From a virus (Duplodnaviria; Heunggongvirae; Uroviricota; Caudoviricetes): a stretch of DNA of 25,367 nucleotides. Position 1 is the first letter of the stretch. The number at the start of each line of letters is the position of its first letter. Shown here one piece after another: positions 1 through 3,000 of the stretch. The stretch lies in the IMG/VR virus record IMGVR_UViG_2706794680_000004, one strand, 5' to 3'. A program made the position numbers.

Positions 1-3000
1 CCACGGGAATATCTGCGGCAGCGGGCTTGTAATGGGTTAAGTGATAACAGATGTCTGGAAATATAGGGGCAAATCCAATCGTCGCCGTATTCCCGTATTA
101 ACAGAGACCGTAGCCCGACGGGGAACTCCTTCTGCGCGAGTGTGCGGGAATAATCAAAAACGATGCACACCGGGGTTACCGGGTACACATATTTCATCAT
201 GCCAGCGAGTCCGGTTCTGGCACGGAAGAAACCGGACGTTATGATTTAGTGCGGAAATATTTGTGTAGTGTTCTGTATGTTCTCAGTAAAGAGTAATGAA
301 TTATCAAAGGTATAGTAATACCTTTTGTTTTCGTGGATATTTGTAATCCATCTGAAAACCCCTGCTGTAGCAAGATTTTTCCTGTATTCGTAAAATGATA
401 ACTCTCCTGATTTGAATCCTTTTAAGGTGGCTTCTATAAGGCATTTATTTTTTGAAAATCTTACATTTACAACCTTACCCTGTCCTTTTATTAAAACCGT
501 ATTATCGTTTTCAAGAACAAGATGAATATTCTCTGTGGCTAAATAGTAAATGTAATGTGAGACATTGTGACGTTTTAGTTCAGAATAAAACCAGTGATAG
601 TTTAAATTATTTCGCACTTTATCGAATATTTGTTTAAAAATGGCAACCTGAGCCATTGTAGTACCTTCCATGTGATATGAGGGGGCGTAGTCTGCACGAT
701 TATCTAAATTGCTTCAATCTGGTCTAACCTGTTTTCTGAGCAATTCAGTAATGTCACTCTTTTCTTTGTTTGCTTCAGGCGAAACTCTTTTTTCTGAGCA
801 CAGTCTCCGGCGGCAGGCTTCAATGACCCAGGCTGAGAAATTCCCGGACCCTTTTTGAACAAGAGCGATGTTAATTTGTTCAATCATTTGGTTAGGAAAG
901 CGGATGTTGCGGGTTGTTGTTCTGCGGGTTCTGTTCTTCGTTGACATGAGGTTGCCCTGTATTCAGTGTCGCTGATTTGTATTGTCTGAAGTTGTTTTTA
1001 CGTTAAGTTGATGCAGATCAATTAATACGATACCTGCGTCATAATTGATTATTTGACGTGGTTTGATGGCGTAGATGCACGTTGTGACATGTAGATGATA
1101 ATTATTATCATTTTGCGGGTCCTTTCCGGCGATCCGACAGGTTACGGGGCGGAAGGCGCGCGGGTTTTCGCTATTTATGACAATTTTCCGGTTTAAGGCG
1201 TTTCCGTTCTTCTTCGCCGTAACCTAATGTTTTTATTTAAAACACCCCCTGAAAAGAAAGGAAACGACAGGTGCTGAAAACGGGCTTTTTGGCCTCTGTC
1301 GTTTCCTTTCTCTGTTTTTGTCCGTGGAATGAACAATGGAAGTCAACAAAAAGCAGCTGGCTGACATTTTCGGTGCGAGTATCCGTACCATTCAGAACTG
1401 GCAGGAACAGGGAATGCCCGTTCTGCGAGGCGGTGGCAAGGGTAATGAGGTGCTTTATGACTCTGCCGCCGTTATAAGATGGTATGCCGAAAGGGATGCT
1501 GAAATTGAGAACGAAAAGCTGCGCCGGGAAGTTGAAGAACTGCGGCAGGCCAGCGAGACAGATCTCCAGCCAGGGACTATTGAGTACGAACGCCATCGAC
1601 TTACGCGTGCGCAGGCCGACGCACAGGAGCTGAAAAATGCCAGAGACTCCGCTGAAGTGGTGGAAACCGCATTCTGTACTTTCGTGCTGTCGCGGATCGC
1701 AGGTGAAATTGCCAGTATTCTCGACGGGATCCCCCTGTCGGTGCAGCGGCGTTTTCCGGAACTGGAAAACCGACATGTTGATTTCCTGAAACGGGATATC
1801 ATCAAAGCCATGAACAAAGCAGCCGCGCTGGATGAACTGATACCGGGGTTGCTGAGTGAATATATCGAACAGTCAGGTTAACAGGCTGCGGCATTTTGTC
1901 CGCGCCGGGCTTCGCTCACTGTTCAGGCCGGAGCCACAGACCGCCGTTGAATGGGCGGATGCTAATTACTATCTCCCGAAAGAATCCGCATACCAGGAAG
2001 GGCGCTGGGAAACACTGCCCTTTCAGCGGGCCATCATGAATGCGATGGGCAGCGACTACATCCGTGAGGTGAATGTGGTGAAGTCTGCCCGTGTCGGTTA
2101 TTCCAAAATGCTGCTGGGTGTTTATGCCTACTTTATAGAGCATAAGCAGCGCAACACACTTATCTGGTTGCCGACGGATGGTGATGCCGAGAACTTTATG
2201 AAAACCCACGTTGAGCCGACCATCCGCGATATTCCGTCGCTGCTGGCGCTGGCTCCGTGGTATGGCAAAAAGCACCGGGATAACACGCTCACTATGAAGC
2301 GTTTTTCCAATGGTCGTGGCTTCTGGTGCCTGGGCGGTAAAGCGGCAAAAAACTACCGTGAAAAGTCGGTGGATGTGGCGGGTTATGATGAACTTGCTGC
2401 CTTTGATGAGGATATTGAACAGGAAGGCTCTCCGACGTTCCTTGGCGACAAACGTATTGAAGGCTCGGTCTGGCCAAAGTCCATCCGTGGCTCCACGCCC
2501 AAAGTGAGAGGCACCTGCCAGATTGAGCGTGCAGCCAGTGAATCCCCGCATTTTATGCGTTTTCATGTTGCCTGCCCGCACTGCGGGGAGGAGCAGTATC
2601 TTAAATTTGGCGACAAAGAGACGCCGTTTGGCCTCAAATGGACGCCGGATGACCCCTCCAGCGTGTTTTATCTCTGCGAGCATAATGCCTGCGTCATCCG
2701 CCAGCAGGAGCTGGACTTTACTGATGCCCGTTATATCTGCGAAAAGACCGGGATCTGGACCCGTGATGGCATTCTCTGGTTTTCGTCATCCGGTGAAGAG
2801 ATTGAGCCACCTGACAGTGTGACCTTTCACATCTGGACAGCGTACAGCCCGTTCACCACCTGGGTGCAGATTGTCAAAGACTGGATGAAAACGAAAGGGG
2901 ATACGGGAAAACGTAAAACCTTCGTAAACACCACGCTCGGTGAGACGTGGGAGGCGAAAATTGGCGAACGTCCGGATGCTGAAGTGATGGCAGAGCGGAA

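Follow-up and report, generated by a model that had tools for sequence, protein, structure and literature searches.

Two AT-rich genes beside cos of a lambda-like phage are probably separately evolving passengers, one of them encoding a ribbon-helix-helix-like protein

A DUF3950 gene and a DUF1398 gene abut between lysis and packaging genes

We analysed a 25,367-nt stretch of DNA (hereafter the window), IMG/VR virus record IMGVR_UViG_2706794680_000004, which comprises the right end, cos and the late operon of a lambda-like temperate phage. Left of cos and antisense to the late operon lie two minus-strand open reading frames (ORFs), 246-671 and 714-947, which encode a 136-aa protein of the DUF1398 family and a 77-aa protein of the DUF3950 (YlcI/YnfO) family, respectively. 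The results showed that the distributions of the two families are largely independent and that their pairing is not obligate, as each family was found without the other. They are probably two separately evolving morons that abut, both pointing leftward, at the lysis/packaging junction, the small gene encoding a putative ribbon-helix-helix (RHH) repressor and the larger one a YdfO-fold protein that may act in lysogen physiology. Both genes were already known as uncharacterised families, present in lambda and twice in Escherichia coli K-12.

The locus lies between the lysis genes, as seen in close relatives, and cos, beyond which Nu1 (1336-1881, +) is followed by terminase A and by head and tail genes. 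The DUF3950 gene starts 200 bp from cosN and is separated from the DUF1398 gene, on the same strand, by 42 bp. The GC content is 0.32-0.34 over 300-750 as against 0.53-0.61 in the late operon, and with its deviant GC, its antisense strand, its place at a module junction and a predicted promoter for DUF1398 the locus has the features of a moron; consistently, the presence or absence of the DUF3950 and DUF1398 genes varies between otherwise similar phages. Family-profile matches and purifying selection confirmed that neither ORF is a chance ORF. For DUF1398, the ATG at 656 is the likely start, since it is preceded by a GAAGG Shine-Dalgarno sequence (664-668) 7 nt upstream and the NCBI annotation of the homologues also has 136 aa. 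Among phages, PhiR49_1, Kati, Chlobot and ev099 come closest, and DNA of the interval 200-1000 was matched in 3802 of the 5426 complete E. coli genomes searched, at up to 99.9% identity.

The first-pass annotation of this DNA had described two AT-rich, moron-like minus-strand genes homologous to the right arm of lambda, and much of it held. The ORF calls returned both genes where it had placed them, with the 77-aa sequence as quoted, the larger protein is DUF1398/YbcV-like, and alignment with the 64-aa ORF of lambda showed that the C-terminal tail of the small protein does differ. Its YbcV/YbcW assignment was right for YbcV and wrong for YbcW. The small protein is YlcI/YnfO (DUF3950). YbcW/lambdap79 is the product of another gene, which is encoded on the plus strand between the two in lambda and the DLP12 prophage and is absent here.

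Each family occurs without the other

In the phage collection, DUF3950 was found in 153 records and DUF1398 in 43. Among the complete E. coli genomes the DUF3950 core occupies 9861 places, spread over 4184 genomes with a maximum of 12 in any one, and full-length prophage-type DUF1398 is present in 3011. DUF3950 is much more frequent without DUF1398 than with it, and many prophages and Stx phages have it alone, beside iss/bor, Rha, PerC or Rz. DUF1398 stands alone as the near-universal chromosomal gene ycgX, between bluR and iraM, and again in Kluyvera, Pseudocitrobacter, Klebsiella, Raoultella and S. enterica diarizonae, whose DUF1398 genes have neither DUF3950 nor Nu1 within 4 kb. In lambda and DLP12, moreover, a gene on the opposite strand separates the two. 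The obligate linkage of an antitoxin with its toxin is thus not seen here, and neither a toxin-antitoxin system nor an operonic regulator-effector unit is a suitable description of the pair.

Two candidate links between the reading frames were considered and rejected. A protein cluster of 761 members (P0134, 233 aa) contains both Pfam domains and looks like a natural DUF3950-DUF1398 fusion; the contig DNA has an in-frame TGA (locus L004, 1274-1975), and the fusion is an artefact because the gene caller read TGA as Trp on short AT-rich contigs. Programmed read-through of this TGA was likewise set aside: the shared frame is not conserved, and among related loci 49 of 79 share it while 30 do not.

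DUF1398 travels with its own upstream region

A sigma-70 promoter for DUF1398 was predicted inside the 3' end of the DUF3950 ORF, overlapping an element that resembles a PdhR box (Table 1). Genomic SELEX (systematic evolution of ligands by exponential enrichment) had located PdhR sites upstream of ybcV in DLP12 and at ynfO/ydfO in the Qin prophage, and ybcV mRNA was 10-fold lower in a pdhR mutant (PMC7660256). The element of the window, ATCTGGTCTAACCTGTT, is orthologous to these sites. The window contains its conserved 13-mer only once (against 0.02 matches expected); the bare core TGGT-N3-ACC did not exceed chance there. The element also marks the point where homology between the window and lambda resumes. 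Orthology of the element and the resumption of homology at it together argue that the DUF1398 module travels with its own upstream region.

The DUF3950 protein combines a near-invariant core with an exchangeable tail

The 77-aa protein matched Pfam DUF3950 (PF13132, E 2e-20, 72.8 bits against a cut-off of 25), NCBIfam YlcI_YnfO_N (NF041551, 35.2 bits against a cut-off of 30) and phrog_949, a group of unknown function (E 6e-33). In an alignment of 34 homologues, residues 1-49 were near-invariant, with 28 invariant columns, and everything after the motif RRRL was swapped. Nei-Gojobori estimates gave a ratio of nonsynonymous to synonymous substitution rates (dN/dS) of 0.05-0.10 for the core at a dS of 0.6-0.85, which marks DUF3950 as a translated and strongly constrained protein rather than merely conserved cos-adjacent DNA.

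The tails differed in every context while the core stayed constant. In phage BP-4795, which has an HNH-TerS-TerL packaging module, nucleotide homology to the window runs from the ATG to near codon 49, and the DNA upstream of DUF3950, which carries a good Shine-Dalgarno sequence (GAGGA), is unrelated to that of the window. By such comparisons the tail, the C-terminal 28 residues, is incidental read-on into the DNA of the neighbouring module. Among the 80 viral-contig loci with the 77-aa tail type, DUF1398 comes next in 79, since the DNA that encodes the tail is part of the module downstream of the core; this set holds near-identical YnfO-type loci only and adds counts but no diversity. The near-identity of DUF3950 DNA among lambda-type phages is probably explained by cos-stimulated recombination (PMC3945230).

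A divergent member of the family (NF041551, E 4e-16) was found in the capsid-forming satellite-like element vB_KppS-Ant. Its 67-aa ORF (locus L113, 4001-4204, +) lies opposite an annotated 324-aa 'hypothetical protein' (3634-4608, -), a coding-sequence annotation that is probably a mis-call. YlcI/YnfO genes have been reported in capsid-forming phage-inducible chromosomal islands (cf-PICIs) of Enterobacter (PMC13612085), and the vB_KppS-Ant member is consistent with that report.

In every context examined, no gene stands between DUF3950 and the packaging module, and DUF3950 is transcribed away from that module. Three module types are represented: Nu1/A (the window, lambda and loci L030-L032 and L117), HNH-TerS-TerL (L114, L116 and L119) and phi330 (L118). 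Nu1 lies about 370 bp upstream of DUF3950 in 74 of the 80 viral contigs. Of modest interest is a near-invariant, Arc-like domain of 49 residues that thousands of lambdoid prophages keep directly upstream of their packaging genes.

The DUF3950 core probably adopts a ribbon-helix-helix fold

In the core, a basic N-terminal arm (isoelectric point 11.8) is followed by a putative beta-strand, RNIRF, and by helices 19-32 and 34-53 on either side of a glycine turn. In the AlphaFold model of the 77-aa protein these helices are joined at G33, with a predicted local distance difference test (pLDDT) score of about 90 over residues 21-50 and of about 55 in the variable tail. The basic N-terminus is unstructured in the model, as expected for the monomer of an obligate dimer.

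We compared the core with the P22 repressors Arc and Mnt. The strand motif N-[IL]-R-[FW]-P is in register, T-R-N-I-R-F-P of DUF3950 with Q-F-N-L-R-W-P of Arc, and in both the helix-A proline and the inter-helix glycine are equally far apart, 15 residues. Like the P22 proteins, the 77-aa protein is small, has a basic N-terminal arm and is encoded within or next to the late operon of a temperate phage. In contrast to Arc and Mnt, no operator, divergent ant-type promoter or partner gene was identified for it, and there was no significant sequence or profile match. In hhalign the alignments of DUF3950 and Arc paired in register but weakly (P 0.0058, probability 6%), and the comparison was non-significant with the single sequence as well as with the alignment. 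Foldseek and the sequence and profile searches of PDB returned no significant RHH match. The Pfam search of the 77-aa protein, extended to E values of 10, reported neither the Arc family nor any other RHH family. Sub-threshold NCBIfam matches pointed to RHH proteins (BrnA antitoxin, E 0.11; MobA, E 0.08). Taken together, these weak but concordant lines from sequence and model make it plausible, and probable, that the core is an RHH domain.

As such a domain, the basic 49-residue core would dimerise and bind DNA in the manner of Arc/Mnt, and we infer that it may serve as a small repressor made from the prophage. Genes of antirepressor type (Ant, Rha, KilA-N, AntA/AntB) are frequent near DUF3950 in other phages and cf-PICIs, an arrangement that is reminiscent, by analogy, of the Arc/Mnt-ant layout of P22.

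DUF1398 is a soluble YdfO-like protein that lambda can do without

The 136-aa protein matched Pfam DUF1398 over the whole profile (PF07166, positions 1-119 of 119, E 3e-43, 147 bits against a cut-off of 22) and is 77% identical to E. coli YdfO (E 3e-67), of which a nuclear magnetic resonance structure exists (PDB 2HH8). It has an isoelectric point of 9.4 and 16% aromatic residues, and the hydropathy profile contains no hydrophobic segment; to judge from its sequence, the protein would be soluble and cytoplasmic, with the YdfO fold. The database labels 'head protein', attached to its PHROGs group phrog_413, and 'putative envelope protein' are baseless, because the protein lacks a hydrophobic segment. 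Its dN/dS against the lambda and Qin copies was 0.19-0.30, indicating purifying selection, and by eye the sequence seems to contain a two-fold internal repeat. The family is small: at E up to 0.001, relatives formed only 189 clusters among 1.84 billion representatives. Full-length divergent relatives are single-domain proteins of about 130 aa, and those located in genomes are all from Enterobacteriaceae. Searches of Pfam, PADLOC and structure databases showed no similarity of the DUF1398 protein to known toxins.

Studies on the K-12 and lambda homologues indicate that DUF1398 is dispensable for lambda growth and that its overexpression is tolerated. The lambda homologue, lambdap78, was non-essential by CRISPR interference (PMC10695390), lambda x DLP12 recombinants selected by a ybcV::Kan marker were viable, and a Keio deletion of ybcV exists (PMC3945230). 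The ASKA overexpression clone of ybcV grew and had an altered glycogen content (PMC2853380). Expression of the K-12 homologues is conditional, linked to PdhR, H-NS and stress (PMC7660256, PMC7827196, PMC4077768): ydfO was induced about 100-fold by an imidazolium ionic liquid (PMC4077768), and overexpression of T4 MotB, which alters H-NS repression, raised ybcV and ybcW more than 1000-fold (PMC7827196). According to work cited in PMC4077768, overexpression of YdfO is said to increase resistance to oxidative stress. In one study ydfO was classed as 'essential only by TraDIS' (transposon-directed insertion-site sequencing; PMC5821084), a result that in our own reading reflects occlusion of AT-rich DNA by nucleoid proteins.

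The chromosomal gene ycgX is a third E. coli paralogue of DUF1398 (locus L122, 2727-3131), matched in 5376 of the 5426 genomes. Its neighbours bluR, bluF, iraM and ycgZ-ymgA are small regulatory-connector genes, and such surroundings may suggest that the family acts in regulation through protein-protein contacts; a survey of 2025 considered no functional inference possible for ycgX (PMC12356324).

In the model that we favour, the DUF1398 protein of the window would be expressed from a promoter of its own, located within the end of the DUF3950 gene. This promoter would be silenced by H-NS, as the AT-richness of the DNA suggests, and tuned by host regulators through the PdhR box. In the lysogen, the protein would act on the physiology or stress tolerance of the host and not on phage growth.

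The locus is of the Qin type

Two layouts were found in the E. coli RefSeq genomes, ybcV-ybcW-ylcI (DLP12 type) and the direct adjacency of ydfO and ynfO (Qin type), and the window belongs to the latter. Qin shares with it the same two families in the same order, on the same strand and directly adjacent. Qin ynfO also has the 77-aa YnfO-type tail, with an identical tail peptide and a TGA stop after which the DUF1398 ORF continues in frame. DNA identity is 88% over 208-1000 of the window, and in the Qin-type locus L004 a Nu1 gene (NohA in K-12) occupies the same position beside a cos-like site. The differences lie in YdfO, in which about a quarter of the residues are changed (77% identity, Nei-Gojobori dN 0.14), and in the state of the element, Qin being a defective prophage while the window has a late operon that appears complete, and its cohesive end is a variant.

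In lambda and DLP12, as in the window, both families lie on the minus strand between bor and cos, the sequence hardly differs from the DUF3950 core as far as cos, and a PdhR-like element is found upstream of DUF1398. Unlike the window, lambda and DLP12 have an insert of roughly 560 bp with the plus-strand gene ybcW/lambdap79 between the two genes, a small protein of 64 aa with a different tail, TSEKRAYTSIKSDEE, and DUF1398 proteins that are 76% identical to that of the window. Alignment with the lambda DE3 record identified the DUF1398 counterpart as lambdap78, annotated with 177 aa from an upstream GTG start (locus L001, 2668-3201), and the DUF3950 counterpart as an unannotated 64-aa ORF, 48109-48303 on the complement (L001, 3735-3929). 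This YlcI/YnfO-family ORF is unannotated in the lambda records J02459, NC_001416 and DE3 despite strong purifying selection. A coevolution study reported two 'intergenic' mutations downstream of lambdap79, which may fall in it (bioRxiv 10.1101/2024.01.08.574707). The gene ybcW/lambdap79 (+; L001, 3364-3570) is a presence/absence insert and is missing from the window between 672 and 800; lambdap79 was scored essential by CRISPR interference, in a table that also records a non-essential status from earlier literature.

The lambda genes bor and lom are similar to the genes of the window in being AT-rich, transcribed independently of the late operon (bor antisense to it), not needed for lytic growth and placed at module junctions; in lambda and in locus L030 the next gene on the left is bor or its relative iss. 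Their products differ, as Bor and Lom are envelope proteins with serum-resistance or adhesion phenotypes and the proteins of the window are predicted to be cytoplasmic.

Alternative explanations

The YnfO-type arrangement could also be a local regulator-effector operon, in which the RHH protein would repress its own promoter and a co-transcribed DUF1398 cargo gene. The close spacing on one strand, the absence of a predicted terminator between the genes in the terminator scan, the regular succession of 77-aa tail and DUF1398 and an imperfect palindrome upstream of the small gene all speak for it. However, DUF3950 forms a single-gene unit in most contexts and DUF1398 does without it elsewhere, an opposite-strand gene intervenes in lambda and DLP12, DUF1398 brings its own predicted promoter and PdhR-like element, and BP-4795-type loci keep the same DUF3950 core without the palindrome. 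We therefore regard a dedicated operon of this kind, which the first-pass annotation had also raised, as possible but unlikely.

Protection of the lysogen from other phages, by one or both proteins, would suit the antisense, AT-rich position between lysis and packaging genes, a hotspot with many such genes. Relatives have conversion genes such as bor/iss, OmpD and PerC as neighbours, and DUF3950 reaches 12 copies per genome. Yet among 5027 PADLOC models (PADLOC-DB 2.0) none matched DUF3950, and DUF1398 gave only a chance-level match to Csx23 (E 0.025, 12.6 bits); neither protein has an enzymatic or sensor domain, and the literature searched reports no phenotype. A role in defence or superinfection exclusion is accordingly improbable.

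We also considered whether DUF3950 might be a pan-lambdoid, trans-acting RHH regulator functionally tied to the lysis/packaging junction, which would block terminase read-through in lysogens or cross-regulate co-resident or superinfecting lambdoids. A near-identical core is common to up to 12 prophages per cell and to the capsid-forming satellite-like element. We consider this idea doubtful, at the level of the defence hypothesis. Were it true, lambda would have, 200 bp from cos, a regulatory gene that is strongly constrained and missing from its annotation, and a read-through block would matter because terminase leaking in lysogens would otherwise cut chromosomal cos sites.

A narrower proposal is that DUF3950 serves the packaging junction itself, as a DNA-bending accessory of cos or as an antisense or roadblock insulator that keeps transcription of plus-strand morons out of the terminase genes in a resident prophage. 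The constant position of the gene, last before and divergent from the packaging module in three module types, and the regular distance to Nu1 favour it. The phages phi80 and PhiR5_1 weaken it: both have Nu1-type terminases, and phi80 the lambda cohesive end, without DUF3950, so DUF3950 is not required for lambda-type packaging. In HNH-type modules, moreover, only 41 bp separate DUF3950 from the HNH gene and no flanking DNA is common. Terminase and IHF suffice for cleavage of lambda cos in vitro. A service to packaging is therefore highly improbable.

A type II toxin-antitoxin pair, with the 77-aa protein as RHH antitoxin upstream of a 136-aa toxin, was the other suggestion of the first-pass annotation, and it fared worst. 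As in ParDE, RelBE and RHH-type MazEF, a small putative RHH gene directly precedes a larger one in the same orientation. Unlike in these systems, co-occurrence is not obligate in either direction, the distributions being largely independent and DUF1398 having its own predicted promoter, DUF1398 resembles no known toxin, and the antitoxin-like tail is not conserved but tracks the recombination junction rather than the partner. The homologues can be overproduced or lost: the ASKA ybcV clone grows (PMC2853380), lambdap78 and ybcV are dispensable (PMC10695390, PMC3945230), and overexpressed YdfO is, in work cited in PMC4077768, associated with a gain in stress resistance. These observations make a toxin-antitoxin pair extremely improbable and leave two separate passenger genes as the preferred reading.

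DNA elements around the two genes

The features of the locus are collected in Table 1.

Table 1. Positions of genes and DNA elements in the window (strand '.', none assigned)
Feature	Position	Strand	Details
Hairpin	209..237	-	stable, GUCCGGUU...AACCGGAC; starts 9 nt past the DUF1398 stop; no U-tract
DUF1398 gene (YbcV/YdfO/lambdap78 family)	246..656	-	136 aa from ATG at 656
DUF1398 alternative start	ATG at 671	-	ORF 246..671, 141 aa from first ATG
Predicted sigma-70 promoter for DUF1398	699..726	-	TAGACC, 16-nt spacer, GATAAT; 9/12 in consensus scans
DUF3950 (YlcI/YnfO) gene	714..947	-	77 aa
DUF3950 variable tail	714..800	-	YnfO type, CSEKRVSPEANKEKSDITELLRKQVRPD and TGA stop; also the DUF1398 upstream region
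PdhR-box-like element	717..733	.	ATCTGGTCTAACCTGTT; orthologous to genomic-SELEX PdhR sites at ybcV and ynfO/ydfO
DUF3950 conserved core	801..947	-	codons 1-49; Pfam, NCBIfam, 34-homologue alignment, dN/dS
DUF3950 upstream region, up to cosN	948..1146	-	two palindromes; palindrome and promoter scans
Imperfect palindrome	1017-1049	-	ATCAATTAATACG, 7 nt, CGTCATAATTGAT; upstream of DUF3950
Perfect palindrome	1095-1111	-	ATGATAAT-T-ATTATCAT; about 35 bp left of cosN
cosN-equivalent cohesive end	1147..1158	+	12 nt; alignment with lambda DE3, annotated cos

In the region between the DUF3950 gene and cosN the promoter scan found no strong sigma-70 match, the best scoring 8/12. The imperfect palindrome of this region was tried as a DUF3950 operator and rejected, as it is not conserved in BP-4795-type loci, whose flank differs. 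Lambda-type phages have nearly the same DNA in this region and BP-4795 has unrelated DNA, so that sequence conservation is unable to confirm an operator. By analogy with the annotation of phi80, the perfect palindrome would lie in the cosQ/R4 neighbourhood.

Beyond the DUF1398 stop, the segment 120-260 on the minus strand folded with a minimum free energy of -41.4 kcal/mol (z -2.5), and the hairpin within it is also conserved in lambda. The terminator scan did not report this hairpin, which may be an RNA 3'-end or stability element rather than a canonical intrinsic terminator. A long inverted repeat on the cosB side, at 1250-1316, gave sub-threshold miRNA-like Rfam matches only, and the Rfam search over 1-2500 returned nothing relevant.

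The cohesive end of the window is GGGCGGAAGGCG, as against GGGCGGCGACCT in lambda, with 5 of the last 6 bases different and flanks almost identical. Among the cos-bearing sequences compared, this variant was seen in 9 (8 viral contigs and the window) and the lambda type in 69. PhiR49_1, the closest phage at 98.6% identity, has the lambda-type end.

Neighbouring genes and sequence records

In the nearest relatives of the window the left neighbours, at 2298-3123 of locus L002 and 2131-3120 of locus L003, are a small minus-strand hypothetical gene and, after Rz, a plus-strand KilA-N gene, with an OmpD porin moron farther left. Within the window, a run of masked N at about 3100-3500 falls inside the terminase large-subunit gene, where the GC profile drops to 0.03, and the ORF 1856-3490 accordingly translates into a run of X.

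Many records among the homologues contain lambda or cosmid DNA under other names (protein hits P0015, P0027, P0059 and P0082), including Staphylococcus aureus, Bacillus sp. and the spider Caerostris extrusa. The 'Campylobacter phage CJLB-4' (MW057783.1, 48,361 bp) gave scores equal to those of lambda for both genes, at near-lambda coordinates, and hundreds of error-ridden ENA contigs of about 3.5 kb resemble a lambda control amplicon.

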